From: Catajapyx aquilonaris
Lineage: Eukaryota
Direction: 5' to 3'
NCBI GenBank assembly: GCA_000934665.2
Contig: JYFJ02002469.1
Coordinates: forward strand, 1 to 56,436
DNA: 56,436 bases
The notes beneath the pieces were generated by a model. That model was not told the DNA's origin and did not search any database. It saw nothing but the letters and a program-made list of their open reading frames with translations. This document shows, piece after piece, positions 121 to 42,973 of the stretch. How positions within the stretch are numbered: position 1 is the stretch's first letter; every line of letters starts with the position of its first letter. The position numbers and the translations under genes are program-made.

Positions 121-1820
121 AGCCGATTGTAAGATACAGTTACTTTGTATATGAAAATTGCGCAAACAATATGCACAGTACGATAAGTTTTTCATGTTAC
201 AGTAATCTTTAAAAAGTAATAATTTTCTCCTGAATACACCATCAATAATGACGCATCAAATATGATCAATTTACCATCAGCATTATTTAGCTGAGTATTA
301 CTGTACATTTAAAAAATATTAATATAGAAGGTGCAGGTTACACTAACGTGTTGCAAGTCAAATGCTTTACTAGATTTTTAGTGATATGCCTATGCTATAT
401 ATCGACAATAAAGGTCGTTTAGGTATGTAGGGAGGTCTGGATGGCCACCCACGAGCATGCATGGCTGGATCTACTCAAATTCCTGACATAAGCATCTGGA
501 TTTGAAAGCTACCCCTGGAGACGTCCGTGCTGTTGCGACTTTATAATCTTCCAGTTCAGGTAGGCGAGTCACTTGTTATAATGCAGGAAAATTGGCACCG
601 GTAAGTTGTGGCACGTGTAATAAAACCAGATTGGAGATTAAAGAATGGTATGAAATGAATATTTAGTGCATATAAATGGGGAAGCTAAATGAACTGGATC
701 TATAATACTGCAGTTCCTATCAGGCTATAAATAGGGCTGTTAAATATTTGCAAGATGTCGGACATACGGTGTAGATGAATCTCTCGCATTTTCCTCGAGT
801 AATTGCGAACCTCCGCATGATATTTGGATTCATAACGTTTTACAATAAGTTGCTATAAAAGGCCCTATAGGTAGACTACTAGTGCTTTATAAGCTTTTCT
901 GAATAGGTGCAACAAAACTGTCACATAAGTAATGAACCGTATAATTTGCAGGCATCGCTCAGGCAATCCAGCCTGCTTTATATTATACAACGACAAAGTA
1001 TAGTAAAGTGTTTCAAACCAGACAGTGAACATAATTATGTAACTCCAGCAGAATAGTATTTTTATAGTATTAAATAAGGGCAATTCCCTTTTAACTTCAT
1101 GCTACCTGTAAGAAAACAAGAGGCTATTATAAATCAACGATAATGCACGCCTTCAATTACGATACAAACTCATATTGTTATACTGTACGTAGCAGGTACG
1201 TAGGACCTAACGTTGCCCAACCAAGTACTATAATTATTATAGATGGGCAAGAAAATGTGATTTTGCAATAATGAAAAGCAGTTAATGCAGTCCTGATTGT
1301 GGGTCTCTTTCAAGTAATGTGTGGTTGACTAGCAGAAAAGCAAGTTTAAAAATGCTTTTTCAGAAAATACGGTACCTATAAATAAAACACAGGTACTCGA
1401 TAATGCGACAGGAACTGCAGAACAAGGAGAGAATAATTAGTGTCTGTACTATGGTTTTTATCCGGTCGAAATTCATCCCTTTTGTTACCATTGTTACTGT
1501 CTAAGCATAGCAAACCATAAAAATGGTCATTGTCCCCTAATCATCAAGCGGTTACGACTGTTGGGTTTTGAACCACACGTTACCCTGAGTTTTTGACTGG
1601 CTCATGTCATTTTCCCTTCAGCCTGAAACGTGCTTGGCAAGCATTACTTTGCAACGCGAGAGCGCTCTCTGTGACCGCAATTCACCGTGTCGCACAATCC
1701 GAGCTGCAGTGCATGACCCGCAATTACCGGTAACCCCCATTTTGATTGCGCCGCCAGGAGGACACCAATCCCGTACCACCAACGCCATCTGACATCCCCA
1801 TATCCAACCAAACCCGTCAT

Positions 1821-1990
1821 CGCCGCCATCTTGCAGCTCCTGGCCAATCAGAACAAAGGAGCTCAAAGATGGCTTCGAGCCGCCATCTTGCAGCTCCTTC
1901 CCGCTGATTGGACAGAGCAGCAACATGGCGGCTCGAAGCCATCTTTGAGCTCTTTTGTTGTGATTGGTCAGGAGCTGCAAGATGGCGGCG
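1821..1990. promoter_or_regulatory. 76-bp-arm inverted repeat packed with YY1/Pho-type and CCAAT motifs; probable HMIT1 promoter
   Basis: Arms 1821-1896 and 1915-1990 match at 71/76 positions with an 18-nt spacer. Six GCCATNTT/AANATGGC motifs and three CCAAT/ATTGG boxes, about 280 bp upstream of the HMIT1 ATG. Confidence 0.7.
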
Positions 1991-2270
1991 GGGCTTCAAG
2001 GCTGGTGTTCGTTCTAGTGATTTCTGTGTTGGGGCGAGGGCGACGTGCATTGTCTCCGCTCCGTACAGCCACCTGCGTGTTGCCGTGCCAGCCCCCAGCG
2101 GACAGCTGGAATGGAGCGCCGCGCTTGATTCCATCCCGCCCACCACCCCCGTCACTACTATTGGGTGCCTGCCCATTTTTTTTTTTTTAAAAAGGACAAG
2201 ACTGATTAGATTTGTAAGGAGGGTTTTTTGAAGGGAGGGTAAAACTATAAAAGGGGAGGTTGCACCAAGG

Positions 2271-5200
2271 ATGACGAACAAGTACAGGCGAAGTGCCAGT
2301 GGTGAGGCTGGTGAGGGAGAGAGGAGGCCTGTGGTGGTCAAGAGGCACTGTTACGGAGGGATGGTCACTTCTCCGACGGACAGCAGCGGGCTGGTGGGGT
2401 CACCCAGCGGGGATGAGGAAGGAGGACTGGTTCAACGCACCGGGACACCCAGGCTGGTGTACCTCCTCACCGTCATCAGCGCCATTGGGGGTTTCCTCTT
2501 CGGCTACGACACCGGGGTTGTGTCCGGAGCCATGCTGATTATACGGTAGGAGAAAGTGTGTTCTGTGGCACCTCGCCTGTGGAAATATGTACATGGCACA
2601 GGCGCACCTGTAAAGGACAAAAATTATACCACATTAATTAATTTTCACTGCTTATGACAAAGCTTGCAGGCCAGGCTTTATCATCTGCGCACATTTTTTC
2701 CAATTGGAAAAGAAGTGGCTGTTCAAATGGGCTGCTAAACTGCAGAAAACGATACTACGATCCGACGTCTTTACACAACAATATCAGTAAAGAGTGTCAA
2801 CAAAAAGAACACTGTTTACGCCAATTGTTGCCTGAGAACAAAATGACGACGTCAGATTGTCGTTCCTTTTTCCGCACTGTAGAATAGGATTGCCATTACA
2901 AACAAGCAATAATCGCTCAATATTAGGGCCAGTCACATGTCATGAAAATATATTTTGTGATTAGATTGTATTTTTTATTGTTGAATTACAATGAAAAACA
3001 TAAGGCCACAAAACTGTGTTACAAATGGCATTGATATGTAGCCATAGGCCGGATTGCTCTGTAAAGTTTTGATGGCCTGCACTTCATCGGTACCATGTTT
3101 GTTTGGTAAACAATTGATGATAAAATATGGGCCAGAAATTCTTTCCGGATATAGATACACAATCTGGCTGAAGGTTGACGAAGTTGCTATTTTTCATATT
3201 GATTAGATGATGAAGGGTAATTCAGACTGCAGCTGCATGAAAATATGTTATTGACGTTCATTTAAATAAGCTGGCTTCCAGAATTTTCTTAATTATTAGC
3301 CAATTAGATTTTTCTCTGGTGACATTGGTGCGTAGGGGTAGGTCAGAGCTATTAATTGGTCACTTGAACTGATTTTTTTTCTTTCAATTATAATGAACTT
3401 CAGTATACAAAGTTTGAGGACAATGGACTACAAGTTACCTTGGCCTTTAGCTGATTCCCTGCCCCACCCAAGTGGCCAACTACGATTTGGCTGCAATGAG
3501 GCTAATGAAATTACCCTGAATGAAGTAAAAAAAGTTGTTTTTGTAATGTAATTGTTCATTCCTTCTTTGTTTTTTTGTTGGCGAGTCCTTACTGAATTGA
3601 CATTGCCACTAGCAGAGGGTGAATAGCTTTAACAAGCTAGGTTTGGTGCAGTTTTATTTTGCAAGTTCAGACAATCTCACCACTTAACCCACTTAAATTG
3701 GTATGTCATGTGTCAAAGCACATGGAATCATCTGGAACAAAATCGGGTAGAGAATTTGTGAAGATCACTCTGGAGAAGGAATATTATCAGCAATTATGCA
3801 TAAATTGTGAATCAATAGTCGACTTTCTCAGCATGATAAATAATAGCAGATACGGATATTTGTGCTGAAAACCTGGGAACAGAATTTTTGTGACCCATTG
3901 TGGAATTAGTACATGCTTCCCTGAATCAGAATTAGTCACGATGTGGAGTGTTTTCTTATGCAAGGTTTAAAAAAACCTCACTCAAATCAGTGTTACCTAT
4001 TACTTCGTCAAGGACGTTATTTTTGTTTTATTTTCCGAGGAAGTGTTTGTTGGTGTTGACTTGCATCAGGATGGATGCATGCATGTTGCTAATGTAAGCA
4101 TGTAGAATTTGCTTTGATTGCACAACACCTCCCAGGAAGTTGACACGTTTGCTTATCTGCGCAGATATTATTTGCACAGAACGTGTTCTGTGACATAGTT
4201 TTTCTTGAAATGTGGAATTTTAATGTCGTTGGATTTGCCTTTCTGTTGTGTGCAATCACGTGATGATTGAGGCAAAGATATTGTGTCTGAAATTAAATTG
4301 GGAAACCACTGCCGCAAAATCCAGAATTTTCCATCTTCACTGCAGTGTTTCCTTTCCAGAACTCTGCCAGAAGGCTCTATACACTTTCTCTGCGCATAGC
4401 CCACATTCGGTTTTTCCTGGTGCACTGCCATTAATAGCATCAATCATTTCCCTCGACTAATGACTAAAAGCTATCCAAAAAATAACCTTATTGGTGTTTG
4501 AACACATGCCAATATCACTTGAGGGTTATGTGTCACAATAACTACTATTGATTAGGTTCTAGGAAAGTGGTGTATTCACTGTGTAACATGGGATTCCTCA
4601 TTTTCTTTTTCACAGGGACGAGTTCAGCCTAAATGACTCTTGGCACGAAGCAATTGTTTCAGGAACCATTGCTGCTGCCTGGGTTTTCGCTCTTGTTGGC
4701 GGGTTTCTTACTGGTAAGCATCGTGACTCACTATTGGAAATATGAGGCCATGCAATAAAATTCCACCCAGCCCCTGCCATTGCCCAGGGTCACAATATCA
4801 GCTGTGTAATAGTGTTCTTGGATTACCTGCATATGCCCATCTGGCATATCGAGTTTGGAAATGCTTTGTTATCATATGAATAGATTGGCTATGATTTTAA
4901 TGCATTACTCTGTTGATCAATAATAGCATCAATTCATTAAGCTAGCAATTTCATTACAGACAAATTAGGTCGTAAACCAGTCATCATCATAGCCAGTATT
5001 GTCTTCACTGTGGGTGCTGTAGTCATGGGAGCAGCTAATTCCAAGGAGGTACTTCTAGCAGGGCGTGTCGTCGTTGGAATTGGAATTGGTTAGTAATGCC
5101 ATTCTTTCCTACAACAGTATAATTTGAATCTGAAAGGGATTGGCAAGCAGCTAATTACAAGGTGGTTTGGAGGTAGCCTTTGGTAACTAATCTTTCCAAG

Positions 5201-5751
5201 TTAGTAGTAAATACATGAGAAGTAACAGATGCTGTTAATTTCAGACCACCCTGTACCAGGTTGTTTTCCACTATTGTACATAGGGGTAAAATTACATGAT
5301 AACATTACAGCCAGAGGGTTATTTTGGGAATATTTTACATGTATTATATAATTTAATGACACCAATTATATGCCTGGCATATATCAGATGAAACCATATA
5401 GTCATCCCCAAGGGGAGGCGGAGTGGTGATGTAGTGCTCCAGACGGAAGGTTCCTGGGGTCAATCCCAAACTGAGGAGTTCCCCACTTTCATCTCATGTG
5501 GAGTTGGGTTGTAGCTGGCATTGTCATGGCATCAGATTTGTTCAGACTGAACAGGAAGAAGGATGGGATCAAATTCACCCATAATTAATGTTTTTCAGTC
5601 CCCCCCACAAAATATAACCTTGACAGTTTGTGTCACCAAGACCTTGAACGGTTCACTTTTATCAGAGTTTGCAGCTTTGCGTCATGGCCAAGTCTTCCAT
5701 TTAGGTTATTTTTTATGTGTAACCTGTTATGCAACCATCCCACAATGACAA

Positions 5752-5810
<59 letters not shown>

Positions 5811-8800
5811 AAGATATGTGCTCAATATTGTTGGAATTGTACGAGTTACTTCAAGTGCAATGATTATGGATATTGGTTGAGTGCATCTGATAGGCTTGAG
5901 CGACAAACATAGTAGACAATAATTATTGAACAAGTATTTGAAGGAAGGTAGTAGCAGATAACTTATCGCCAGTTAAACACCAATGCAGGTAGTGGCACAT
6001 GTAGCCCTGCAGAACAATGCTTGCTTTTGTAATGTTATATCTACGTCATTCTTAATTAAATGCATTACTTGTGAATAAATTCTATTTAAGGTTGAAAAAT
6101 TAGTCTGGTATTTTACTTTGTTTTAGAAAATGCATTTTTGAACAAAATTGCACCTACCACACTGGTGTGATGAAAAATGTGTGCTTCAAGTGATAGGCCC
6201 TAGTAAATTAATCTAATTTGAAGTACAGTACACAGGGATCCTTGACTTTTAAACACATAAATCCATACCAACTCGTGGCATTTATGTTATGCATTGATGA
6301 TGATGATTCATGTATTTTTACCTTTCATTTGTGAATATTATATGAAGTGCTTACATAATTTATGCTGCAGTGGAAAGATGCTGCAGTCTGTTATTAAACT
6401 TACTGAGGGGAGTGACTGATATCACACTTTATACTTGTTAGTGTTGTTGCCTTACATAATCACTTTACAAATACTGGAGTTGCATGATTTTGTGTTCCTC
6501 GTTGACTGATCAAAGCTACTAAACCGCAGATGCAACAGTGCTCATGAAATAGTCATTTCTCTGCTGATTTCAATCAGTCCTCTCGTGAATAAGGGCTTCG
6601 TGCACTCCACTCTGTTCAACTGGATTTACCCTATTTTGAATTTAATGACTGCCTCCCCTTGTTGAAAAATTGATGTCCATTCCTATAGGCTGGATCAATG
6701 AATTCCATTTGCTTGTGACCCTGTTACATCAGTACTCTCCTAATTTGAGAAATAACACATCAGAGGTCACAGCCAGTGCCGGATTTAACACCACCATCAA
6801 CCCCCCCCCCCCCCCTCCANACTTAAAAATTCAACTTGTCTCTTGAGTTATCTCCTTCATTTCATTTTATTATATTAAAAATTTATGTTTCAACTTATGG
6901 GCGCCCGTAAGCGTTTCTGCCAAGTGGCAAATCTGGCGCTGGGAATATCCCAGCGAAAATTTGGAATTTTTAAATGATTTTGCCTTTATTTCCTATTATT
7001 GTAGCCTGTTTGAAAAATATTTATTGCAACGCGCAGCTGCTCCTAGGCAATTTATTGCCTACCCTGCCTTACGGTAAATCCGGCGCTTCTTCCAGTCGCA
7101 TAATAATTTATTATTTATTCTTCGTTTAGTTTTTTGGGGTACCTAAATTTGCCGCCCCTTGAAATCTGCTGCCCTAGGGAACTGCCTAGTTTGCATTGAC
7201 GTAAATCCGGTGCTGGTCACAGCTCCTGTGTACCATGCGTATCACTTGAGTGAAAATATATTTAGTACTGAGGCTGCCATATGTGAAACATTCATGAGGC
7301 AGTAATTAATTCTTTCCTAATTTGGCCTGATGAAACTCATGAAACACGGGAAGCCTGAATTACTTATAACTTGTGGCATTTGGTAAGGAGGAGTTTTACG
7401 TACGTTTTCAAGGGTAACATAAGACATGGCGAAAATTTGAAACACTGCTCACTTTTTCATGTCGTCTTACCACTAGAGGTTTATACATATCTCCACTTCA
7501 GCTTACTGTATGTAACTGATTATAATATCTGATATGATACTGGTTAACTAGTTAACTAGTGTCACCTGTTTTAAAAAGCTTCATTAGCCTGTGGACAACT
7601 GCATAAGTTTAATGTAAGAAAATACACCCTGATTGGATATGTCTGCAGATCAGTTCCTTTCTGCCCTTCTCTGATCCCCCTGCCACCTGATTAACCTGCA
7701 ACACCTGTTCCGTTGAACCCAGGCCTCACCTCCACCACAGTGCCCTTCTACATTGTGGAGTGCGTACCGACGAGGCTGAGGGCAAAACTCGCCTCCTACC
7801 AGGTGGTGATGACCGCCTTGGGCCAGCTCACGGCCTGCTGCATTGATGGAGCCCTCAGCAGGCTTCCTCACAGCGTCGCATGGAGGTACATGAACTCTGT
7901 TTTCCCACACAATACTCTATCCTTATGTACCTTCCTTCATGCTTTTAACACCACATCCCAGACTCATCCTGCACAGAAGTAAAAATTCAGTTCTTTTAAC
8001 CTTGATTGCAATAGGTGGCTGGAAATTAGGAATTTTTTGCAGTTCTCTTAGTTTATGATGCTAATGTCGATGTGTAACTCTTTGTTTTCTGCCACCAATT
8101 CCAGTCAAGCTAACCCCCCACTTTTCAGGCATGCAGTGTTATTTAGTAATGCATAGTGGATCCCAGCAGCCAGGGTTTTATGCCTAATTTTTATGGTCTG
8201 GTATGTTGTTAACGAGCATCTCTTCTAATTGGGGAAAGTGACCTCAGTAGGTATTACCATGTTGGTTTTTATGTATGCTATTTGTGTGAGTCAGCGTCAT
8301 TGCTTAATTATTGATATTATTTTTGGCAATTTATATAATGTGTGGAGCAGTGCATATTTTTATTTGTGGATTTTGTAATGCAGGAAAAGCATGGATTATT
8401 GTTGTGATCATATCCTGAGAGCATGCAGTTTAATTTCACGTCAATTGGCATCATGTTGCAACATGCATAATGCTAATTAGATACACCTTTTCAAGTGATA
8501 AGGTACTGCAGTCCCAAAGGATATAACATATCAATGTGATTTGATTTGTTGACTGGGCTCACATAACATGCACCTGACATAACTACAAATCAGGAATCAG
8601 TGAGACGCATGGTAGGAATGATCATCCACTTGTCACAGCTGCAGTGCCACCTGTTCAAATCTAGCCTGCATTTGCATTACTCAACCACACAAACCTTGCA
8701 CTGCCCTCTACCACCCATCCACATGCAGAAAGAAATGATTTGCATATACCACTCAAGGCTTTGGAGGTTGTCACTTGCGAGAGGATTTTAATGTGGTACC

Positions 8801-11800
8801 AATGGACATGGATACTGATATGAAGGAATAGTCTAGTTGTTATATTTCTTCACTCTACCATGTACTGTAATTACAGTAGTATCACTTCAGACGGTCAGGT
8901 TCAAGACACCTGCATTTTTCTGTGAAATGTAGGTCAGCAACATTACGCAAGCGATAATGGTGATATTTATGTATTCCAGCTCCACTAAGTATTACAGTGA
9001 TATAAATCAAAACCAAGAGGTGTCAATGCAATAGGAGGTTGATTAATATTGCAGAATTTTGTCCAGGCAGAAAATAAAATGAATTAAATAGCTAGCACAG
9101 TAACATTGCTTGTTGTGGATTAATCGTGATTTTTTGCAATAATATTATTGTTTATGTATGCAGGGAAGGGAGGAGGATAGGAACATTTGAAATCATGCTT
9201 TTTGCAGCAAATGTTCTTGTAAATAGCTTTCATTCTCTGCAGCTAAAAATGGATTTGTGGGTTCAACTCGTATGAATAACCTGAACTTAAGAATGTGGAC
9301 AGTCATTGCCCTGTTTCTTAATGTTTTCTCACAATTTTCTATTTACAGCTAGTCGCAACTTTGAGAAACATGCTTGTTCATTGCCCTGACTCAGTCAGTA
9401 GAAAAAAGGGTGCACTTTAAATCATGAATTGAATACTTCAGCACGTTAATGTGTAGCCAGACATCGTTTGTCATCTTTACATTACATACATTACATCTGG
9501 TGAGGTGCATGCCTCAGCATATCGTACTAGTACAAAGCCCAGCTCTGATAGGCGCTCTGGTCACATGCTTGTTCTCATTAGAATTACGGTATTATTAGCA
9601 AGTACATTAAGAGTAATGGTACTTCTTACACTGCCAGCTATGTCTGTGCTGTGTTGTAGGCTGTGTTATTTACTTGTTAATTTTTGTCAGTGTCCATGCT
9701 TTTAGTGTGGGCCCATGCCCGACTTCACTTATGCACTTATGCACGTGTACACTGATACAGGCTTGACCAGCATGAGTGTGCCTTTGTTCATCGCCGAACT
9801 GTCTCCACCTGAAATCAGAGGTGGCCTGGTGACCCTCAACAACCTTTTCATTACTGGAGGACAGTTTGTTGCTGCTTCTCTCTGTGGGGGCTTTGCCCAT
9901 GTTGACGAGGGCTGGAGGTGAGTGTTGTTTTTTTAATGCCCCACTATTGAGCCGTGGAGGAAGGTTTGGAGTGAATGTTTCCATTTTATTTGTCATCAGC
10001 TGTGCCAATTATATCCTGCAGTCCAAGCAGCAGCATGATGTAATCATTACAGAGCTGTAACACTGCCAACTCTTAACTTTGAATATCTCAGTTTTGCTTT
10101 CAAGACTTGTGAACTATAATTTTGACAATCCTCCTTCAGGTACATGCTTGGGCTAGGTGGGATCCCATCACTGATTCAGCTGGTGGGAATGTTTTGGATG
10201 CCTGAATCTCCCCGGTGGTTAGTAGCCCATGGCCGCATTGAAGATGCTCGGGACGTGCTCAGGAGGACCAGGGGTGGGTCATGGGAGGCAGTGGAGCAGG
10301 AGTTAGATGACATCCGACTGGCATGTGAGGAGGACCGTGCTTGCCAGGAGGAGGATGGAACCTCCTCAGTATTAATCAGAGTGCTGCTGTCTACTGCTAC
10401 GAGAAGAGCATTGCTACTTGGGTGCCTCCTGCAGTTATACCAACAGATCTCTGGGATAAACACAGTCATGTACGTGCGTGTAGCTCTATGGCCAATAATT
10501 TGATATTACTACAATGCCATGAACCTCCTTAATTTTGCAGGTATTACAGTGCAAGTATCATCCGAATGGCTGGGGTGAGTGACAACTCACTGGCCATCTG
10601 GCTGGCAGCTGCAGTTGCCTCAGTGAACTTTGTGTTCACCTTTGTCGGACTGTACCTGGTGGAGAGAGCAGGCAGGAGGAAGCTCACGTTGGGATCCATG
10701 GCTGGTGTTGTGTTGGCCCTTGCCTGTTTGGGAGTTGGATTCCAGCTCGCGGATTGGAAAACCCCACCTGTGCAGATTCCTGTTCTAAACCAAGGGGACT
10801 GTTCTAAAGCAAGGTTTGTGACATCACCAGGTCAGAGTATAAGTGCATGGGATTGATGTTGCATACTTCCCGCCTGTGTGGGATGATGCCTCTGGATTCA
10901 TGGTGTGTGTAATTTTTTTCCAGCACATGCTCTGACTGCACATTCATAAGCTCTTGTGGCTTCTGTTATGAGAGCTTGCCAGGTGGTGTGGCAAATGGAT
11001 CATGCCTTCAGGCAAGCCCAAGCCATGCCGAGTCATATTCTGCCTTGGGGCAATGCAGCAAGCCAGTTGAGCCCTGGGTATGGTCCTATGGATTCTGCCC
11101 ATCCCAGTTTTCCTGGATGATCGTAGCCTCATTGTGCGTCTATCTGATGTTCTTTGCACCAGGTCTGAATAGAGTGTCAGAGATTGGAATTTTACTAAGT
11201 TGTGTGCATACTGTCCTTATGCCATGGTCTTCCTCCTCTTTTGAAAGGCATGGGCCCAATGCCCTGGACCATCAATTCAGAGATCTACCCCATGTGGGCC
11301 CGCAGCACATGCACATCCATCGCAACTTCAGTCAATTGGCTTTTTAATCTCCTGGTGTCCATGACCTTCCTTACACTTGCCAACTTCCTCACTCAATATG
11401 GTGAGTACTGATAACTTTTTTTGCTTCCTGCATTATCTGACATCTCGTTGGGTGACCTTCAGAGATGTTTAAAAACAAAGTATTTGAATCCAATTATATG
11501 ATTGTCAACTATCCATTTTAAAAATGTAAAGTGGGTTTAGGTGGGAGGCTAATCTGAGCTTCGAATTAATACAATACTGTCTATATTTCCAGGTGCATTC
11601 TACTTGTATTCAGGCATAGCAGCTACTGGCTTTATTGTCTTGTTCCTACTACTTCCCGAGACAAAGGGAGTAAGTCTAGAGGACATGGAGGTCCTGTTTT
11701 CTAAGAGCTGGTGCTGCCCTGGGGCCAATTTCAAGGTGACTTCATCTGGAAGCCTATCCATCGGCTCTGTCAGACACTCAGAAGATGGATCCGCAGTTCA

Positions 11801-11873
11801 GTACGTACATATTCGTGGACTCAACCGTGATTGTCGTCCTGCTGAGTACGAAAGTCCCGATTCAGACTCGTAA
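2271..11873 (+). CDS. SLC2A13: Proton myo-inositol cotransporter (HMIT/GLUT13, sugar porter family), copy 1
   Basis: GT-AG exons 2271-2545, 4616-4713, 4960-5088, (7723-7885 or 9761-9917), 10140-10469, 10541-10813, 10924-11162, 11248-11400, 11593-11873 splice in frame. Motifs [47 protein letters not shown], Cys-rich TM9-10 loop, [23 protein letters not shown] 2361 is an alternative start. Confidence 0.93.
5411..5750 (+). mobile_element. Decayed tRNA-derived SINE
   Basis: Head GGAAGGTTCCTGGGGTCAATCCC...AGGAGTTCCCC resembles the cleaner copy near 38607 (GGAAGGTCCCGGGTTCGATCCCC...AGGAGTTCCCC). Followed by a (TAA)n tract that could be its tail. Boundaries approximate. Confidence 0.45.
5754..5809. 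repeat. (TAA)n microsatellite, about 18 units
   Basis: Perfect trinucleotide run visible in the sequence. Confidence 0.98.
6774..7215. mobile_element. Non-autonomous hAT-type DNA transposon (MITE)
   Basis: Terminal inverted repeats CAGTGCCGGATTTA / TAAATCCGGTGCTG with an exact 8-bp target duplication GTCACAGC (6766-6773 and 7216-7223). Extra right-end-like motifs near 6928 and 7075. One N at 6820. Confidence 0.85.
7723..7885 (+). CDS. SLC2A13: Alternative (duplicated) exon 4a of HMIT copy 1, encoding a divergent TM4-TM5 segment
   Basis: AG/GT-bounded 163-nt exon with the same splice phases as the 157-nt exon 4b (9761-9917). Encodes [55 protein letters not shown] versus [53 protein letters not shown]. 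Confidence 0.82.
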
Positions 11874-14800
11874 TTTGATCTGTGTTGGGGAAACCTGGTT
11901 ACCAAAAGGGAGTGTGAAAGAGGTCGAGTGACAAGCTGCAGTTTATCAGATGGCTTTTAGCTTTTCTAATGCTGGGACCATGCCCAAGTTGTTTCAGCTG
12001 TTTTTAAGTGGAGCTATCACTGTCTGACTAGAAAGGTGTACAATACGGGGGCCCCTTTGTTCTTTTGGGTCAGTCTAGGTGCCATTACTGTCATGCATTT
12101 ACACTAATGACAGGCTCCCCTTGCATGTCTGAACCAATTGCAAAAAAGGTCACCCAGTTTTTATTCCTTGTTTTTATTCCCTACATCTTGGTGCATTAAG
12201 TTTTTAGATCCAACCAGTTGGGTCACCAACTTCTTTTTGCATTTCTTTGCAACTTAAGAGCATTCCACATAAGGTATGTGACAGTCACAACTGTTTTGGT
12301 TTGCAAAAACATTTACAAGACACCAAAGCAGCTCTTTAAGACAAAACAGGGTCCATCACGTTTAATATACCTTCAACAATGCCACAAAATTTTCTCAGAT
12401 TATTATTTTTCTTGAAAAATATTGTTTGTAGAACGATATAATAGGCTATATACGAGTGGTGTGTTGTACCTGTTTATGCATTGTTAATAGTATGCTGTGC
12501 TCTGGATAATGATGAAGTGCACATGTGACATGTTTCTGGATGGATTTGAAAAATTTGGCCAGATCAAAAATCAAGACATAAAATTTTGTACGTCCATTTT
12601 TACAACTCGAGCCTGCTGCAACTGTGGTGCTCTTTTGCACATAATTGCTTAGATGTAGAATCCAGCTTGATAGATTGCTCACTCAAGCCTTATCACTTTT
12701 CTCGTCGTGACTTGTAGACAGTTGGGAAAAGTATGTATTTTCCAGCACGCAAACTGTGGCTTGCACACACACTGCACGAGACTAACTCAGGTGGAGGTGG
12801 TGGTGGTCGAGGCAGGAGAATTACAAATGTGAAGTAGCTGCATGCGTTCTTAATTTATTCAGATAATAATTTATCAGTGCAGACTTTCTGCTGGTGCTGT
12901 GTTGTTGAAAGAATGTTACCATATGAAGAATGATTTATATTGGGTCATTTTCTTTAAAAGTAGTAGGTGTGCTATAATATTTCACGTCCCTTCAAAAATT
13001 TCTCCAGAAATGACACAAACTGTAAAGCTAGGTGCTTCTAGTATTGTGGTGCATTATCGATGGGGAAGGGACTGTGGGTGTGCGTATTGTGTATAATCGG
13101 CCAGACATTATAAATTTGTGAAAGTGTGTTGATGTACAGTGTGTGAGAAATCCAAATCTATGTTACTAATGCATGTTCCTGATATGCCACATAATTATTT
13201 CCAAAATATGACAATTTTAATTTGTAATTGTGTGACTTGAAACTTTTGCTTTGCAGAGTTTGGCACATTGGCTTTCCTTGATTTGCATTAGCTAAATGTA
13301 ACATGGCATGCTGCACTAATGCAATGTTTTATTGTTTTCTGCCGTATGATACAATGGAAATTGCTAATTTTTAAAGTATTTTGGTTCTGAGGTATGCTGT
13401 CAATACTTAAAATATGCATTGTCAGGACTTCATAGAATAGCCATTTTAGTGGTGAATGGAATAAGATTTAATATGTACCTGTGAGGAATTCTTCCACGTT
13501 TGTTATGTTAATCAATTATGTGAAGGAAAACATTTGTTCAATATTGGCAGTTATTGAAGAAAGAGTTAAAGTTATGAGGGGTACTCTCTTTTTGTCGTAA
13601 AGAAAATGACCCAATACATGTTTATGTGCCATAATCAGTGATGCAAAGATCTTAATTATATACAACGCATAAGAACTTATTAACGACATGAATCAATGTC
13701 AAACTCAGTGTATATTTCCTTCAATTCCTTTATTGTGACCATTTATTTACATTGCTGTAATGTAATTTAAATTCAGTGTATTATATCAACACAACCAGAA
13801 TTATGTTAGGATTGTCTGTACATATCTCAAGAAGGACCAAAGTGCTTCAAATAATGCAACTCTCTTTTGCAACTACAAATGTTCATATGATGTACACATG
13901 ATATATTTAATGCTGTCAAATAGTTATGGTACAGTATATGCAGATAATGAGGAGATAACTATTTTTAAACTTGATCCACAGCATTTTAAAAATACTAGTC
14001 AATTTCAGGCATTTTCTATTGCTCAACAGCATAGTTGGCAACAATATTATTTTGATCTCCACAAAAAGCTTTTACTAATAAGAGAGTTACATTGAAACGT
14101 GTGGCTCTTATCTTGGTTAAAAAGCTTTGATTATATATAAAGCTGAAGTGGTAAACGCCAGTACACCAGTAAAAACACTGCAATATATATGCATCGTATA
14201 ATTAATGTGAAGGCTGATAAAAATATGTCTGTGATTTGTTCAATAAAATATGTATGTTTTATTCGTCCACCACATGCATAGTAATTTGAATGTTGCGTGT
14301 TTACCCTGTCATGCCTTTGTGCTGCTGGTGTTTGGTATACAAACTAACTGCATTGGAATATTGACGGTAAAGGATCAGAAGGGTGCATCAATCACTTTGG
14401 ATGGCAGCTGTTTTGTGAAACCCAGAATGCTCCCAGGAGGGAGCCCTACTGAATTTCCAATGTGGAACTTCCCAGCACTCCTTTTGTCATTCTGTGTTTT
14501 GACATGCAGCTCCTGGTACAGAGCCATTTTTATTGATGATATGCCCTCTCGAATCATTTACCTTTGATATAAATCGCCTATTAACATATTTTGCTAGAGA
14601 TGATTGCAGATTTCTCATCTCATGCCTTTTGCTTTATCAGTGTAATCTCCTGCGGCTGCTCATCCAAGTTCATAAGTTATGCTTAAAAGATATTTTTTGC
14701 ATTCAGGCAGCTCTTACCACAAGGGAGTTTAGCTTGAACTATTTTGACATTATGTATAATGATTGGATCTATAACTTAATTAATCCTCTAACTGCCATAA

Positions 14801-18551: not shown

Positions 18552-21500
18552 ATGTTGAAGTTGTGGACCAAGATGGTGTTGTTCGGTGTATGTTCTGCAG
18601 TGAGCCTTGTCTTCTTCCTAAGTTGGACAAAGGGTAAGGAATATTGTGTTACTTCTCCATTTGGGCTCACGGTGTTCCCCATCAGCTCACACTTGAACCT
18701 ACAGATTGTCAGGCAAGGAACAAACCGTACCATCCCAGGATATATCCACCAAATAGCCAGATAAACTTGATAGAAGATGACGTGTTTTTGATATGTCGCC
18801 ATACGAATCCCAACATCACGTGGTCCTATCCGCATATTATGGTATGGGAAAGGATGCAGGGTGTGACAATGCACACCATCGTATTTCAGCATCAATAGAT
18901 TTTCTTTTTAGGGTAGTGTTTCCTCAAGTCACGAGGTACTGACCGGTACGTACGATGTCACCAAGTACATGTACGTGTCGGTGCTGAAAGTCACGAAGAT
19001 AGATTACACTCATAGTGGCTATTATTACTGCTCGGATGTGGTCAACGGACTTGGAAACCAGATATATGTTCACGTTCAAGGTAAGGATGATGCCAATTCA
19101 CAATAATCGTTCCTCTCCTTACTTCATCCTTCCAATCACAATACAAGATCTGAAAATTTATATCTCTCAATCAGGTCCTGTGGACGCAGTCTTTTTCGAT
19201 GATGGCAAGGGTGACCGGGCAGTGTCTGCTTACCTGCACCAACGGTTTATTATACCGTGTCGATTAACTAACAATTTTTTCGTAATTTTTCTCTGGAAAT
19301 CTGTTCCTGATGGAGGGGACCCTCTTCTAGTTGCCCATTCAGTGAGTTACCCTTTTGCATTATGAGTAGGAAACATCATGACAAGTGTATCAGGAAACAT
19401 CGCCGGTTGATTTCATAAAAATATTATTAACTTAATAGCCTCTTGATCGTTTCAGGATGGATCTTCGCAAGGACCAATCAGATACGATCCACAAGTAGGA
19501 TTTGTTTTTCTGAATGCATTGCCCCAGCACAACGGCGATTATTTTTGTAGTGCTGATTGGTATGTAGAATGGCCGATAGTCTCTGGACCTGTTACTTCGT
19601 TATTCTCCTTTTCGATCAAAAGTAAGCTGGGTGCACTTAGGAGGAAACTTATTTTCATAATATTCTTGTGATTATATCAACCACATTTCCAGGTAATCGG
19701 CTGAACATTGCTCCGAGGACTTACATCACGGGGCCTTCCGATTCGACTATTCTGATTGGACACGACCTGATATTAACCTGTGAAGTGTTTTTGGATCACA
19801 ACGCGACTCTTAACCTTCGATGGGCTCTGCCTGAACTCACGCTCAAACGAAAGGTGAAAATTTTATTAGTCACTGATGACTACTTTGTCAATAACCCAGG
19901 TTGAATATAACAAACACTTAATTTGTTCGCGTTTTCAAATAGAGCCGCATAAGTCAAGTTACCAATATTACACGAAGACATGATGACCAACTCTTCTCAT
20001 ACACGTCCACATTGACAGTCGGAGATGTGAGCAAAGAGGACGAGGGACTGTACTACTGCATCAGCCAAATGAACGGGATGCACAACAAGCTGACTTCTCT
20101 CTACATAAATGTCATCGAAAGTCCGAATATTATTATTGCAATTCGCCAATTAAACGCGAATAACTACTTCACTAAAATTTTAATGTCTCATTACAGACAC
20201 ATCCTTAATATTGTTGTCGTCAGAAGCTGAGAGGAGAGAGGTATTTTCGATAACAGAGCTGGAACCACGATTGGAAGTCCAAGTTCTTACGTCGGATCAG
20301 AGCATCGAAGTAGCCTGGACACGAGACAAGCAAGTCCTCATCAACAGTCCCAAAATTCGCGTCTGCATGAAGGAGGACGAAAAAGGAATTTTGCATGATA
20401 CATGGTTAGAGTTTACCAATCTCAGCTTGAAAGACGCTGGGAATTACACCCTACTAGGTAGCGATTGGAATGTGATTCAAAACACAAATATCGAGATATA
20501 CGGTAAGTACACCATTGCCACCAATTCTGGCATTTTGGCCATACAAAATATTTTTTGTTCTAGTAGGAGTCCATATTGAAGGGATTGAGCGCTATTTTCC
20601 GTTCGGAATGGGACAAGTATTTTTTCAGTGTTACGGACTCCTGGACAACAATAAGACATCCAGCGCCACGAGGAATTTTGAATGGCATTTCATTCCATGT
20701 GCCCAAAGAGGATCCTACGAAGAGCAATCCCATTATGTGATGGAACATACGAAATACGAATAGTTCCCTTGAAATATCACTGTAAATATATGTTGTAATT
20801 TTCGCGCAGGTGATCGGTTCTTCAACATGCAGAGACGGGAATCTCGGTTGTTCCAATGCATCTCTCCTGATGCTACATTCAGGTACTCTTTCCTGCACAG
20901 CCGCCGATATCTCTACTTTCGATCGAAATATATACTCCACATATTCCGCCGAGATCATTGTCGTGAGTAGGTATCAGACATGAGCAATTTCGGCTACATG
21001 TGCCCTAACATTCATTTGTTCCTAGGAGGAAATGAACCTTTGTTTGTTGAGGTAGTAAGTGGCAAGAGAAAATTGCTTGCTGGCGACACACTGCAGATGA
21101 GCTGCTCTGCTAGCTCATACTTGTTCAGTCAAGAATCAGTTGCCTGGATGCATAATGGGCAACTAATCACAGTCAATGAGGCAACAGGTACACTGATTAT
21201 ATTTGTATTATTACTTGCACAATAAGAATAAGTATAGCGATTGGTACCGATTTACAGGAGTGGTCACTAGACCATGGGAAACAGAATTGAGCTATGACCT
21301 CGAATTAATTATTCAGCATGCACGCGAGGATCATTCGGGTTCTTACCGATGTGCCGCACAAGAAATTAGAAACCAGAATGAAGTTCCTTCGCTGTCAACC
21401 GTGGTTCAGGTTGAAGTAAAGAGTAAGTACTGGAATAAATTATGACTTTATTGTTATGGGGTATGGTGTGCATGTGGTAAAATGCATGTTTGGATAATGA

Positions 21501-30590: not shown

Positions 30591-33500
30591 ATGGTGTCTC
30601 CAGTGTCGAGTGATGGCCCCAAGTGCGCGACACAAGATGACCAAGGGTTGTCGGACCTGGTCAAAACTACGCCCAAGTTGGTGTACCTCTTGACAGTGCT
30701 AAGTGCCATTGGTGGGTTCCTCTTCGGGTATGACACCGGTGTCGTGTCAGGTGCCATGCTACTTATACGGTACATGTATTATCCATATCTGCATGCAATA
30801 ATTTGAATCTATACAATGAGTTCAATAACATCTAGGTCATATCTGCTGTTAGAAATTTCCAGATATTAAACTTACTCATTATCACTTTCGTCTGTACATC
30901 ATTCGTGACATTTTTTCAAGGTCACTAGACATGCGTATTTTTTAAAAAAAGGATTTGAACAAAAACAATGCGGATATCCCGCTCATTGACATATCTGGAA
31001 TTTCTATTTAGTCGATTGAAATCAGGAATGTTATTGCAGTGAAGCCTTCAACTTGGATGACACATGGCACGAAGCAATTGTATCCGCAACAATAGGCGCA
31101 GCCTGGATTTTTGCACTTGTTGGAGGCTTCCTCGCAGGTATTATGGCGAATATAAACAATAACTGCGCAGACTGATATGTAGTTTTTTGCAGATAAATTG
31201 GGACGTAAGCCGACAATTATTATTGCCAGTATTGTCTTTACGGGCGGTGCTGTCATCATGGGCGTAGCCAGATCCAAGGAAATTCTTTTGGTTGGACGCA
31301 TAATCGTCGGAATCGGAATTGGTCAGTTGGTGTTCTATACTGGTAAAAAGGTCACTAACAGCAGTCAATGCCATTATTATACTCGCAAATACTGTTGTAT
31401 TCTAATTTCGTCCCGGATAGACACATTAGAAGCGCATCTCAATGCCATGCCTTTGTTTATATTGGAACCTTGTGTATGTGATCGACCCGGGATTGACTAT
31501 GTAGGAAACTGATCAGTCTATGAAATCATATATTTGGTCTCAGACCTTGAACTTTATACATCAGTTGTATCGCAATTGGCAAATTGTCGTCTTGGTAAAA
31601 TTACTCTAACATTTTTAAAGCCTGCAACATTAGGAGCATTGTGTTTACAAAAGGCGAATTTAATCTTAACAAACTTCCTCAAGGAAAATAAATAATGAAA
31701 TCAGTGATAACATTACCTGTACTTATATTATAGGATAATAGCACGTGCATGTACGGTGTGACGGTAGGTCATGGTAGGTGATAATAGTGTTTGATGTTAC
31801 ACATTATATCTATAGATAGGAAGAATGTATGTCGTGATGTCTGACTTTGAATGTCTTAGATGACGCAAACGATTTAATTTATTTATTATTACTGTTTAAA
31901 ATTCAGGACAAGGACGAGAAATACCTTCATGAATTCAGTATTGGAGGCATTTCAATTACAAGGTCGAGAAAACATTGTTGTAATCACGATTCCTGTCGTG
32001 TTGTTTCCTCAAGAGCGTTTAGCACTTATGGAAAGTACAATTATTTGCACGAACCGTACAATTGGCTCTGTGAATATTTATGATGTGATGTTACCAGAAG
32101 GTTCTGACATTAGTAGTCAAGGTGCAACTGATCTAACAATCGGAATGTTTGTTACGGGTATGAAGGTATGAAAAGTAAACATTTTGCAAAGTTTAATCTC
32201 AGCAATGTGGGCAATTCGGTCAAGTCATGCTTACATAATAATTGCATAATCCAGATTATCGGTTGTAATGTTGAAAGGTCATGAGTTCATGCTCATTGGG
32301 ATGACATCCACATCGATGATAATGAGATGTCCTTCATTATTGTTGTTATGGCATGCATTATTATTATGTGTCATAGGCTTGGCCAGCATGAGTGTACCTT
32401 TGTTCATCGCCGAAGTCTCACCACCTGAGGTCAGAGGTCGTCTAGTGACCCTCAACAACATTTTCATAACAGGAGGGCAATTTGTGGCCTCCATTCTTTG
32501 CGGCGCTTTTGTCAACGTCGATGAAGGTTGGAGGTGAGTCCTGTCATTGGGTTGGGTTCACACGAATGTTTTTGTCTGTGTCGTTGTAGTTGGGGACTAC
32601 CATTCAGCTCGTGCTGATTGCCCCATCGGCCAAAAGACGAAGACGTTCGTGTGAACAACAGATTTTTGGACATTTGGAAACATTCCAGGTACATGCTAGG
32701 TCTTGCTGGTGTCCCATCCTTAGTCCAACTGGTGGGCATGATGTGGATGCCCGAGTCGCCCCGGTGGCTGATGGCCCAGGGTCGACTGGAAGAAGCCAGG
32801 GCAGTGCTGAGAAGGACCAGGGGTGGGTCTCAGGCGGCGGTGGACGAGGAGATCGAGTCCATCCGAATAACCTGCGAGGAAGATCAAGCCTGCAAAGAAG
32901 ACGAAGGACAATCTTCATACACTATTGTCCGGATCCTGACCTCCACTGCGACCCGGAGGGCGCTGGTGCTTGGCTGTGTCTTGCAGATGTACCAGCAGAT
33001 TTCGGGGATTAACACGGTCATGTAAGTGGCCATCGCTGGTTGTACGCTGTATCACTGAAAGAGCATGTCTTGTGCAGGTACTACAGTGCCAGTATCATCC
33101 GTATGGCTGGAGTCAACGACAACTCGATGGCCATCTGGTTGGCAGCCGGTGTGGCTGCAGTCAACTTCGTCTTCACTTTCGTTGGGTTGTACCTGGTGGA
33201 AAGAGCAGGCCGAAGAAAGCTGACCCTGGGGTCACTGGCAGGGGTGGTAGTGGCACTGGTATTTCTAGCTGTGGGCTTCCAGCTGTCACATTCGTACGCA
33301 CCTCTCGTGCAACAACCGGTCAATGGACAGGGTCACTGCTCTAGTGCTAGGTAAGTGCATAAATTCCGCTTTCTCTTTGTCTCCTTGTCCCTGAGGACAA
33401 AGCGACGTCCGTGTGAACCCAACACTGAATGTTTCAGGTCATGTTCCGACTGCACCTTCATGAGTGATTGCGGCTACTGTTACGAGAGCTTGTCAGACGG

Positions 33501-35880
33501 AGTGGCGAATAGCTCATGCCTGCTTGTTGCTAAAGGTCATGAGGACTCATTCTCCACATCGGGAAACTGCAGCCACCCCGTACTACAACCCTGGGTATGG
33601 GCCTATGGGTACTGCCCGTCCCAATACTCATGGATCATAGTGGTAGCCCTCTGCGTCTACCTCTTCTTCTTTGCACCAGGTGAGACTGCCAGTTTGTTCT
33701 ACACGATTCGACAATGATCCCCACTGTTTCGTAGGTATGGGACCAATGCCATGGACCATCAACTCCGAGATTTACCCTCTTTGGGCGAGGAGCACCTGCA
33801 CATCCGTGGCGACCTCGGTTTGCTGGATGTTTAATCTTCTGGTGTCTATGACCTTCCTGTCACTCACAGGAGCCCTCACCCAATACGGTAAGCCACTCAA
33901 TTACAAACAATGAATAGCAAGAACCATCCCATTTTTGATAATAGAATGCATCACTTTAATGTGTAAAGTTGTAAGTACAAATTATACCGCCTTGGTTATA
34001 TCATAATAGGTGAAGCGGTACCTGGGTTGAGACAGAGCTTGAATCCTCCTGGACGGACCCACCTGAAAAGAATCATTGTTGTGAAACAATAGCAAATGAC
34101 ATGAGTACTAATAAGGCTAATACTTACACGGAGCACTGCCCCTGGGATAGGTCGAGGCACTGAGAAAGGCATCTGGAATTCCGGATGAACTTTCCTCGGG
34201 ACTGCCAGCCTCTCTGTCCTCTGGCTGCACTTGTACGGAAGCACTACTTTCTTGACACGCACGATGCTTTCACTGCTATCCTCCTTTGCACACAAGATTG
34301 GTACATTGTATTGGTTCCGGTCGTGGCGCGGTATCAATTCTGATGGAAGCGTTGAGTTCCGTCGAAGTGTGTCGTATATCTTCTCAGCTCGCGTACGGTT
34401 GTCGTCTCCTGTCTTGGGAACATCTGGTATGCAGAGGTGCTCAAATGGATTGTGCTTGAACTCCAACTGTCGTGCCAGCTGGAACGGTTTGCCTATGACG
34501 GCTCTGGGGTTGTCAGAGAACATCTTGCACTCCATGATTCTCTTGACGCTTGGACAGCACGTCACGTCTATGAAAGACTTTGACATCACTTTCGGCTTAC
34601 GCGGCTTCTCTGCCAGTTCCACTTTCCGTAGAGGCCCCAGAGTATCAGGCTCCGAGTACATTACAGACGATGTCTTCATGCCTAGCACATTCTTCTCCAA
34701 CGTTGGCGCCTTCAGGATCATGATTGGAGGTTCAACATGTGGCGGCTTAGATGGTTCCTTGTGAGGCTTCTCGTCCTTCTGTTTAGGTGGTTCCTTGCGA
34801 GGCTTCGCGTCCTTCTGTTTAGGTGGTTCCTTGTGAGGCTTCGCGTCATTCTGTTTAGGTGGTTCCAAGTTACGCTTGGTCTTCATGTCCATTTGCAGAG
34901 GCCTACCTCTTGCCTGCCGCATAAGCATATCAGCTTGGGTCACAGTCTCCTTGAAGACTTTCTCGAGGTTCTGGACTACGCCCGATTGGACTCCGACCAG
35001 TTTCTTCGGGCGTACTGCCAGCGTCACCAGTAATCCCCGGATATCACTTTCGTCCCTGTGCTTGGACAGTTCTATGATGCGGTTGGTTGGCACGTAACTG
35101 AGGGTCGCCTTTTTCACTGTCCATTGCGGGTCTTTCGGGTGGGAGTAGTCCTTATGTATTGGCCGAGGCTTGGAAAGTCTTGCGGTCAGGTTCTCCTGCC
35201 TCTCCCACAGCTGCTTCTTGGTCATGCCACCAAACGCGACGTCGTTGGAAAGGAACTCGATATCGTCGCTGTTGACGACACTTTCAACCGCCCCATCGTT
35301 CTTCCCCTTGAGATTGATGAACCTTCTTCTCATTTTTCACCAGTTTTTTGATCCGTGAACTGAAGGGAATATGCTTGCCAGTAGACATGTAAAATGTAAC
35401 TACTGACGATTTGTAGGCAACACTGAAAGTCAACAACGCGTTGACTGTTGGGCATGACATCGCACCATGGTTACAAATGCAGGGTAGGCAACACTTGACA
35501 TATTTTGGGAGCCAACAGCCACTTGTATGCAGGATCTCATTTCATCTTGACTACAATAAATTGTGATGTCACTAGCAACTGTTAAAGAACTGAGGTTACC
35601 ATAATTCACAACTGTCATTTCAGGTGCTTTCTACCTGTACGCATTCCTGGCTTCTACTGGTTTTGTGGTCCTGTACTTGCTCCTGCCAGAGACAAAAGGT
35701 GTCAGCTTGGAGGATATGGAGGTCCTCTTCTCCCAGAGCTGGTGCTGCCCTGGAGCCAACCTGCAGAGGACGGAATCTGGGAGCCTGCAAGAGACCAGAC
35801 GATCAAGGGACGGATCGCAGTACGTACCAATTCCTGGAATGAACCATAGATCTCATCTCTCGAACCCTGCAAGGATGTGA
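30591..35880 (+). CDS. SLC2A13: Proton myo-inositol cotransporter (HMIT), copy 2
   Basis: Exons 30591-30769, 31040-31137, 31193-31321, 32377-32533, 32689-33021, 33078-33350, 33438-33679, 33735-33887, 35624-35880. Same intron positions and sugar-porter motifs as copy 1, with no lesions seen. Confidence 0.93.
33982..35333 (-). CDS. THEG-repeat (testicular haploid expressed gene / sperm microtubule-associated) like protein nested antisense in HMIT2 intron 8
   Basis: Exon 35333-34128 (donor CGT|GTAAGT) and exon 34062-33982 ([26 protein letters not shown]). Repeated R-x-x-x-L-[AS]-x-P-[RK]-type motifs ([41 protein letters not shown]). Lys/Pro-rich. ATTAAA signal at 33960-33955. Confidence 0.72.
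34750..34866 (-). repeat. Coding 36-bp tandem repeat, three copies (EPPKQxDxKPxK)
   Basis: [12 protein letters not shown] / [12 protein letters not shown] / [12 protein letters not shown] in the 445-aa ORF. Confidence 0.9.
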
Positions 35881-41225: not shown

Positions 41226-42973
41226 TTATACATCTTCATCTTTCTCCTGAACAATCCCCCATTCTTTGCATACATTGTGGAGAATGCAACATGACACAAT
41301 AATTTTGCATGCTTTTGATGGATCATACTCCAGTTGACCTTTTGACAAGTCAATACACCGGAATCTTGACTTCAACTCTCCTGCAAAGAGAGATGTAAAA
41401 ATCTTCTTTCATTATAACTACGAGATCACACTTACCTATGGCATGACTGATGAATTGATGCCCCTTTTTATGTCGCTGATTATACCTGTACTCTTTTGCC
41501 GTGGTTGGGTTTCTGACGGGTGTCAAAATGTATGGCTGCAAAGGATATCCTTTGTCTCCTAGAAGAGCACTCCTGGGCTTGATGACACCTGATTCAAAGT
41601 TGTGCTTGATTCGTGACTGATCCCACACATATGAATTGCTGCAGCTCCCTGGCCATTTTGCTACGACACTCAGAATCTGCCTCTTGGCATTGCATATCTG
41701 TATGAGAAAATTAATTTTGTCAGATCAGTCCGGATCAGTCTAATACAGGAGGTAACAATTTCAGTTATAGATGTTTCACTGTGTCATGCAAAATAATGTG
41801 GACTCTTCAATAGCACCAAATGATATGCAGCATATATCTGCGTAATGCCAAAACTGATGGCATAACTCAATATTGACATTTTTCTGGGTTGACCCATTAT
41901 TGCATAACACTGTCCAATTATCCCTCCGCTTTCGATCACTTCTGTGTACGTTGACTGACACCAAGTTCAACATATGTACCAGACACTACACATGGGTTTG
42001 CTGCTATAAATTAATTAATATATAACATGTTTTGATAATCTACGTATGTAAGGCAAAGTTTCTTTGTTTTTTGTTTTCCCCTGGCAACAGCACTTAGTTG
42101 GTGATGGAAGCAGGTCGTGTGAAGAATGGGCTACTCTGCTAGTCATGCATAACAAGAAAATAAAAATCCAAATTTCTAGGATTGTCTCATAGTAATGGAA
42201 GCATTGACAACTGCCTGGGAATGTAAAATTTAATTGAAGAAAAAAGATTTAACATAAACACTGCCTGAACTCGCCAACGTGCTTCCCTACTTCGTTTCTT
42301 TCTTGGGATGGCCTGCATTATTGCGTGGCTCTGGTTACATTTCAATACATACCAACTGTACATTGATGGAATGTGTGGACATCTTGTTGACATATGCATG
42401 TGGGTTCACACTTGGGGCTCTTATCTGTACATGGGTAGTGTCAATGGCACCCACAATGTTGGGAAGTCCACATGTTTCCTTGAACCCTGCCTGGAAAGAC
42501 GCAAAATGCCATCCATAATTAATGTGCATAACTAATAATTAATGGGATTTAATATCGTTACACTACGGTACCTTTGTCTTTTCCACTTCCTCCATGGGAA
42601 AGGCAACCAATTTGGTCATACCCTGCAACAGGGCATTCACAACCTGGTCCAGGGCATGACTAACAGTTGCTTGGCTGAACGGGTGATGATCGCTGCCGTC
42701 CACAATTGCTGCCTGGTATCCCCCCAATCCAAAGTACCTGAGAGCAATCAAAACCTTCTCCTCGACAGACAGTGCCCGAGGGTTGGTTCCCCGTGGAGAG
42801 AGGTACGGTCGAAGCTCATCGCAGAGGAAGAACACGGCGTCCTTAGGGAGGCGGTACATCAGGAGGAAGTGATCATCAGGCAGCTCAAAGGCATTCCTGC
42901 GGTCCCTCAGGACCCTCTCCCTACGGAAGTGGAGTCTCATCATCACGTCCACCACGTACGCAGCAGCCAACAT
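41226..42973 (-). CDS. Harbinger/PIF transposase-derived protein (HARBI1-like), four coding exons, catalytic Glu absent
   Basis: Exons 42973-42572, 42490-42353, 41697-41436 and 41380-41226 splice in frame. Motifs YRL, LSVEEKVLIALRY, SQATVS, GAIDTTHV, HSINVQL, KWPGS, LLGDKGYP, EYRYNQRH, LKSRFRCID, CCILHN. Probable non-coding first exon ending at 43145 (GAG|GTAAGC) spliced to 42982. Confidence 0.88.

Follow-up and report, generated by a model that had tools for sequence, protein, structure and literature searches.

In the genome of Catajapyx aquilonaris, a sugar porter gene of the HMIT/SLC2A13 type (gene 1; 2271..11873) contains two homologous versions of its fourth coding exon, an upstream exon 4a of type A (7723..7885, 163 nucleotides (nt)) and a downstream exon 4b of type B (9761..9917, 157 nt). 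The gene lies on the forward strand of contig JYFJ02002469.1 (assembly GCA_000934665.2), which was analyzed over its whole length of 56,436 nt, hereafter the window. With a probability of roughly 0.6, we consider 4a and 4b to be a functional, old, mutually exclusive exon pair, and gene 1 is likely to produce two transporters that differ in their substrate pockets. In the proposed arrangement, type A stands upstream of type B, and each version would supply the end of transmembrane segment (TM) 4, the cytoplasmic P-x-Y-x-x-E-x-x-P-x-x-x-R loop, the whole of TM5, and the loop that leads to WR, where TM6 begins. To encode a transporter, an mRNA would have to contain a single version; transcripts with both or neither would presumably be degraded, and 4a would be spliced in some tissue or stage. 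The choice between the exons would swap the cavity-facing side of TM5, where type B has a polar residue and type A a hydrophobic one at the column aligned with Q168 of XylE, and the two forms may differ in their substrate or affinity.

Gene 1 has nine coding exons per spliced form (2271-2545, 4616-4713, 4960-5088, either 7723-7885 or 9761-9917, 10140-10469, 10541-10813, 10924-11162, 11248-11400, and 11593-11873), and its structure is based on reading of the sequence, on the open spliced models, and on an HMIT profile. This profile was built from 44 full-length HMIT-like proteins and run over the six frames of the window, and it matches every exon. The constitutive exon 3 (4960..5088) ends in ..GIGIG plus one left-over base of a Gly codon, and the likewise constitutive exon 5 (10140..10469) starts with G/TAC ATG, which reads (R)YM. 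Exon 4a is separated from exon 3 by an intron at 5089..7722 (38% G+C) and from exon 4b by an intron of 1875 nt at 7886..9760 (38% G+C). Frames over exons 3, 4a, 4b, 5, 6, and 8 pass the cut-off of the Pfam family Sugar_tr (PF00083; 22.3 bits), and exons 1 and 9 are slightly below it (15.7 and 21.2 bits). Together, the frames of gene 1 span PF00083 positions 2-452 in order, with positions 68-117 covered by the exon 3 frame and 169-276 by the exon 5 frame. In addition, exon 7 (10924-11162) scores 69.4 bits on the HMIT-only profile over positions 384-468; these represent the long Cys-rich extracellular loop between TM9 and TM10, which we take to be the defining feature of HMIT. The best relatives of exon 5, with 44-56% identity, are named proton myo-inositol cotransporter in their source annotation, where the names reflect annotation and not assays. 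By these matches, gene 1 is an HMIT/SLC2A13-type sugar porter of the arthropod type, while proton/inositol transport itself is predicted from annotation. The PDB copy that was searched holds no HMIT structure.

The original prediction held that two homologous exons of 163 and 157 nt, both 3n+1 long and of the same phase, lie between exons 3 and 5, and BLASTP, PF00083, and the exon borders agree in supporting it. The peptides of 4a and 4b align in BLASTP with 30.8 bits (E 2e-8; 13/47 positions identical), and both fill PF00083 positions 119-170, with 26.3 bits (E 4.4e-6) for 4a and 41.5 bits (E 1e-10) for 4b. Their scores on the HMIT profile are 44.8 and 70.0 bits, respectively. This likeness of the two peptides is far beyond chance expectation. 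The borders of 4a read cccag/GCCTCACC...CATGGAG/gtacat (7723-7885) and those of 4b gatacag/GCTTGACC...GCTGGAG/gtgagt (9761-9917), and in both exons the reading frame picks up after the first base of a Gly codon and breaks off after the second base of an Arg codon. The models spliced by script stay open up to one stop at their end, at a length of 646 amino acids (aa) for the 4a form and 644 aa for the 4b form, whereas inclusion of both exons leads to a first stop at codon 239 and omission of both to one at codon 173, as expected from the claim that both or neither would break the frame. Because both lengths are 3n+1, the frame alone is sufficient for mutual exclusion at the level of the protein.

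Exon 4a was also said to be free of stops and to keep the P-x-x-I-x-E-x-x-P-x-x-x-R, GQ, and WR skeleton while TM5 is rewritten, which is confirmed in the sequence and in the alignments. Its frame is open across 54 codons, and its peptide covers the last part of TM4, the intracellular P.Y..E..P...R loop, TM5, and the stretch leading to WR. The pyrimidine share of its acceptor is 0.63, compared to 0.37-0.89 at the other acceptors of the gene, and its donor GAG/gtacat resembles CAT/gtacgt of exon 5 and ACG/gtacat of exon 1 of gene 2, a tandem paralogue that is described below. The splice sites of 4a are therefore inside the range of the constitutive sites of the gene. Furthermore, 4a forms a G+C island, with a G+C content of 0.62 and a G+C content at third codon positions (GC3) of 0.80, compared to 0.38-0.40 in the surrounding introns. 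The six-frame scan of the window with the HMIT profile found no third exon 4 and no extra copies of exons 1-3 near 4a, and no Pfam match was obtained with the antisense and off-frame open reading frames over 4a and 4b. An origin of 4a as a processed pseudogene is ruled out, as its homology stops at the AG and GT and its phases are those of 4b. Past 4a, the homology extends for two codons only, YM, and the string gtacatg is also found after exon 1 of gene 2.

Comparison with other proteins places 4a in a distinct exon class. A phmmer search with 4a against 1.84 billion representative proteins returned 10 matches at E ≤ 1e-3, nine of which are short frames of 67-104 aa; these resemble single exons from genomic DNA in that they continue past GWR into unrelated residues. 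When 4a alone was used in a homologous-protein search, nothing scored among 32 candidates. The search with exon 5 yielded 71 HMIT-like proteins, and because the best of them is only 55-56% identical, the protein of this species itself is absent from the collection. Of the 71, 65 yielded an exon-4 segment; 64 of these belong with 4b (LVT.N..FITGGQF), one is unclear, and there is no segment that belongs with 4a. With a profile (A1) made from 4a and the nine frames described above, exons of the 4a kind were then recovered as the standard exon 4 in proteins of molluscs, two bryozoans, and one nemertean, which carry the name 'proton myo-inositol cotransporter-like' in their source annotation.

In a tree of 51 exon-4 peptides over 53 alignment columns, type A and type B are split with support of 99/99, and 4a is on the A side, where it is sister to the termite exon A (90/78), while 4b and the exon of gene 2 are on the B side among pancrustacean rows. 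Profile scores give the same division: 4a obtains 61.3 bits with the A profile and 42.9 with the B profile (+18.4 for A), compared to 55.3 and 89.7 bits for 4b. When each row was left out in turn, the A-minus-B difference was +16 to +43 in 19/19 A rows and -13.5 to -38 in 28/28 B rows, and with an A profile that contains no termite rows 4a still scores 59.5 bits, 16.6 above B. At both of the class-discriminating columns, S24 and M29, 4a is in the A state. It also has R17, L32, and P48 in common with 3 of the 19 A rows, apparently the three termite rows, and these residues are outside the four commonest B states. Finally, 4a is only 28% identical to 4b but 47-50% identical to the A exons of other phyla. 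On these comparisons, 4a is a member of a distinct and widespread type-A class rather than a recent copy of 4b.

The orthologous exon A that the original prediction asked for in relatives is present in gene models of a termite and a cockroach, in each case upstream of exon B. The Coptotermes formosanus model P0082 runs from ...GVGIG through a type-A exon, four read-through residues (LVDC), and a type-B exon to YMLG..., and the Diploptera punctata model P0128 has a partial A exon followed by the B exon. As annotations, both models are probably wrong in including the two exons, and in P0082 the short read-through restores the frame between A and B. As read from these protein models, A is upstream of B within one gene in both species. 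The termite and cockroach models resemble gene 1 in representing an orthologous gene with A upstream of B, the same flanking exons, and two exons that are both 3n+1; unlike 4a, their exon A is 160 nt long and scores 94-98 bits on the A profile compared to 61, and 4a is marked by an additional codon and by unusual residues at four positions. When metagenome contigs were scanned with a profile of the termite-like exon A (A2), six were found to carry the exon, four of them distinct, and here it is 160 nt long with ag/gt borders; a seventh, weak and partial match was left out of the set. On the four distinct contigs, the ratio of the proportions of replacement and silent differences (pN/pS) in exon A is 0-0.19, albeit from small counts (silent differences 2-6, replacement differences 0-3 in each pair). 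On the six contigs, exon A is accompanied by neither exon 3 nor exon B.

A tree of 58 proteins, from which the exon-4 columns were left out, was made with a quick method and is given lower trust. In it, gene 1 and gene 2 lie among the animal HMITs, where they form a clade with those of decapods and termites at a value of 99 in the Shimodaira-Hasegawa-like approximate likelihood ratio test (SH-aLRT), and the type-A proteins of molluscs, bryozoans, and the nemertean form a clade separate from the arthropod genes. By path length in this tree, the split between this animal and Blattodea is as deep as that between termite and decapod. In addition, a C-terminal tail with ...DSDS is common to gene 1 and P0082. 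In the simplest reading, these results suggest that the A/B pair predates the split of this animal from Blattodea, in which case the two kinds of exon would themselves be of even greater age, present as alternative exons in arthropods and in separate genes in lophotrochozoans.

The type-A proteins of other phyla (P0083 of Liolophura, P0088 of Mizuhopecten, P0105 of Watersipora, and P0106 of Lineus) are similar to 4a in having Ser24, Met29, and Ile or Val at the XylE Q168 column. In contrast to gene 1, type A is the sole exon 4 of a separate gene in molluscs, bryozoans, and a nemertean, and in the snail Bradybaena type-A and type-B proteins are found under different locus tags. The comparison suggests that what are alternative exons in one lineage are separate genes in another. 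Tentatively, and at somewhat less than even odds, the choice between A and B may be ancient, at least as old as the protostomes, with both versions kept in one gene by arthropods and in two genes by molluscs, bryozoans, and nemerteans, and with the type-A pocket serving a second class of substrate. Isoforms X2 (P0023) and X3 (P0021) of Tubulanus polymorphus resemble gene 1 in that alternative N-terminal modules are joined to a common part after GWR, but there, as known from annotation alone, the alternative part is not a single exon but the entire N-terminal region up to TM5. The two isoforms point to a nemertean HMIT-like gene with alternative 5' modules. In P0021, the exon-4 segment contains PLRLRGR, as does the termite exon A.

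A further line of evidence comes from gene 2 (30591..35880, plus strand), the tandem HMIT paralogue found with the HMIT profile, for which a model of 606 aa was obtained; some of its junctions were chosen by script and are perhaps a few bases off. The proteins of gene 1 and gene 2 are 72.5% identical, and exons 2, 3, 4, 6, and 8 have the same lengths in both. Gene 2 has a single exon 4 of type B (32377-32533, plus strand), which is 81% identical to 4b at the protein level, and nowhere in gene 2, including its 1-kb intron 3, did the HMIT profile detect an exon A. Between the two genes, the proportion of silent differences (pS) is 0.69, which is saturated, and the replacement divergence (dN) is 0.20; their introns have no similarity in blastn (best E 0.17). 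Since silent sites are saturated and gene 2 has lost exon A, yet 4a is open with its splice sites, these comparisons suggest that 4a has been retained by selection. If exon A predates the duplication that gave rise to gene 1 and gene 2, an unconstrained exon A would be expected to have been erased, as in gene 2.

To relate the exon choice to the transport site, 4a and 4b were aligned with HMMER to XylE from residue 143 onward. The column of Q168, the sugar-binding Gln of XylE that corresponds to Q161 of GLUT1, holds Asn in 4b and Val in 4a, the I171 column Ile in 4b and Thr in 4a, and the Q175 column Gln in both. The difference at the Q168 column extends to the classes, with Ile or Val in 19/19 A rows, and Asn in 13/28 and Thr in 10/28 of the B rows. 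Q168, I171, and Q175 of XylE and Q161 and I164 of GLUT1 are TM5 residues of the glucose site (PMC3853582). A swap between 4a and 4b thus alters two of the three positions aligned with the TM5 sugar-site residues of XylE, and the cytoplasmic E...R motif is kept in both exons. The Arg aligned with R133 in TM4 of XylE, a residue that is presumably involved in proton coupling, is located in the constitutive exon 3 according to a hand count from the alignment. Because this Arg is outside the exchanged segment, the swap most likely alters the substrate pocket rather than coupling.

Splice junctions were read from one public run, stored as contigs whose kind is not on record and matching 0.21 of the sequence words, and these contigs were placed on positions 1500-13500; no run recorded as RNA was found to contain the gene. 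After correction for the cut offsets, the contigs contain GT..AG joints at 2545>4616, 4713>4960, 5088>9761, and 9917>10140. The joint 5088>9761, which passes over 4a, and the joint 9917>10140 come from two different contigs. Since spliced joints are present, gene 1 is transcribed and its 4b form exists. The proposal of mutually exclusive splicing stands in part: the anatomy, the frame, and the A-then-B pair in the termite and cockroach models speak for it, but only 3-4b-5 junctions have been seen. Likewise, two of the junctions proposed for checking (5088-9761 and 9917-10140) are present in the contigs of this run and the other two (5088-7723 and 7885-10140) are not. The bin 7515-7915 is without cover by run contigs, which is uninformative on the expression of 4a, and a contig piece at 9472-9721, in the intron between 4a and 4b, indicates some unspliced or genomic signal. 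In the intron that precedes 4a, several run contigs lie with mismatches and loose ends on a repeat at about 6950-7220, in the manner of a dispersed repeat. The same intron contains a trinucleotide microsatellite (5742-5817) that translates as runs of Ile or Tyr, and a single N base at 6820; another single N of the assembly is at 54855.

As for the mechanism of the choice, steric exclusion requires a short intron between the alternative exons, and exclusion of the U12 type requires U12 splice sites. The former is ruled out as the selector between 4a and 4b by the 1875-nt intron and the latter by the donors gtacat and gtgagt, which are ordinary. A stretch of 18 nt at 7591-7608, about 115 nt before 4a, is 83% complementary to two overlapping stretches in 9727-9752, just before the acceptor of 4b. 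Pairing between them would loop out 4a and may represent a candidate selector, although 5 kb of sequence contain 11 inverted pairs of this sort and it may be due to chance.

Several observations weigh against a functional pair. No junction into or out of 4a is present in the contigs of the single run, and no arthropod protein with exon A alone was annotated in the searches, in which isoforms that differ only here would share one 90% cluster. The terminal branch of 4a is the longest in the exon tree (0.79 compared to 0.20 for 4b), and its A-profile score of 61 bits is below the 94-122 bits of the other A members. Among the 16 near-universal columns, in which at least 90% of the 47 A and B exons have one state, 4a keeps 11 and 4b keeps 15, and the changes of 4a at such columns are G20A, N26Q, F44L, and G52A, to which one extra codon before WR is added. 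The run contigs with 3-4b-5 only, the long branch, the low score, and the changed columns, together with the ability of the lineage to dispense with exon A that is evident from gene 2, could be explained if 4a were a relic, once functional but no longer spliced here and not yet broken, so that gene 1 makes the 4b transporter only. We regard this as unlikely, though the most substantial of the alternatives. All four substitutions are conservative (two of Gly by Ala, one of Asn by Gln, and one of Phe by Leu) and the added codon leaves the frame intact, and these changes fit either a relaxed minor isoform or a recently unused exon. The open frame of 54 codons, the AG and GT at homologous borders, splice sites equal to constitutive ones, and the composition (G+C 0.62, GC3 0.80) amid introns of 0.38-0.40 all argue against decay; moreover, given the saturation of silent sites between the two genes and the loss of exon A from gene 2, any neutral phase would have to be recent.

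The origin of 4a is open to a different question, namely whether it might be a lineage-specific, fast-evolving tandem copy of 4b, used or not, whose likeness to type A and to the termite exon is convergent. The approximately unbiased (AU) test retains a tree in which 4a, 4b, and the exon of gene 2 form one clade (p 0.094), although it is 18.7 log-likelihood units worse, and a tree in which 4a is moved off the A side is 4.5 units worse (p 0.365). These tests leave the origin of 4a unsettled and do not formally reject an independent one, and they were made on an alignment of just 53 columns in which 4a is a long branch. However, convergence would have to account for the preference of 4a for the A profile with and without the termite rows, for the rare R17, L32, and P48 in common with the termite exon, for an identity to the A exons of other phyla that far exceeds that to 4b, for the same A-then-B order in P0082 and P0128, and for the lack of an exon A in gene 2, which makes such a copy improbable. 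Even less likely is that 4a is a poison cassette with a noncoding role, whose inclusion together with 4b would create a premature stop and lower the output of transporter. The stop at codon 239 when both exons are included would be compatible with such a role, but a cassette of this kind needs neither an open frame, nor the sugar-porter motif skeleton, nor type-A residues that are kept across phyla. A functional and old pair of alternative exons is thus the reading that we prefer.

Mutually exclusive exon pairs are known in transporters from exons 3A/3B of SLC25A3, CAT-2A/2B of SLC7A2, exons A/B of NCX1, and insect MRP, where the exon swaps alter kinetics or specificity. These cases resemble 4a and 4b in that homologous exons in tandem, alike in length and identical in phase, exchange one module of the carrier, but, unlike gene 1, they belong to other protein families. 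For HMIT/SLC2A13 or any other sugar porter, no account of a comparable exon pair was found in the literature, which was covered at the level of listings and abstracts with subscription journals largely outside the scope. If 4a is used, two carriers of the proton/inositol type would come from one gene, with differences on the side of TM5 that faces the cavity, including a position that binds sugar in XylE and GLUT1. The gene would then provide a natural swap of specificity in a family in which the determinants of substrate choice are obscure. In addition, exon A appears to be handled wrongly by the current termite and cockroach gene models.

The rest of the window contains several other genes. 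Two receptor-tyrosine-kinase-like genes are located between gene 1 and gene 2, at about 19000-23400 and 27783-29719 on the plus strand, and in both I-set/Ig_3 frames are followed by PK_Tyr_Ser-Thr frames; the region from gene 1 to gene 2 has the appearance of a duplicated block. The last intron of gene 2 contains, on the opposite strand, an open frame of 446 aa (33999-35336, minus strand) with a match to the THEG repeat (E 4.4e-12). Further downstream are a fragment of a DDE_Tnp_4 transposase (41353-41724, minus strand), an ST7-like gene (43893-48213, plus strand) with one frame that scores 323.9 bits, and a REX1-B-like frame (52308-52823, plus strand).

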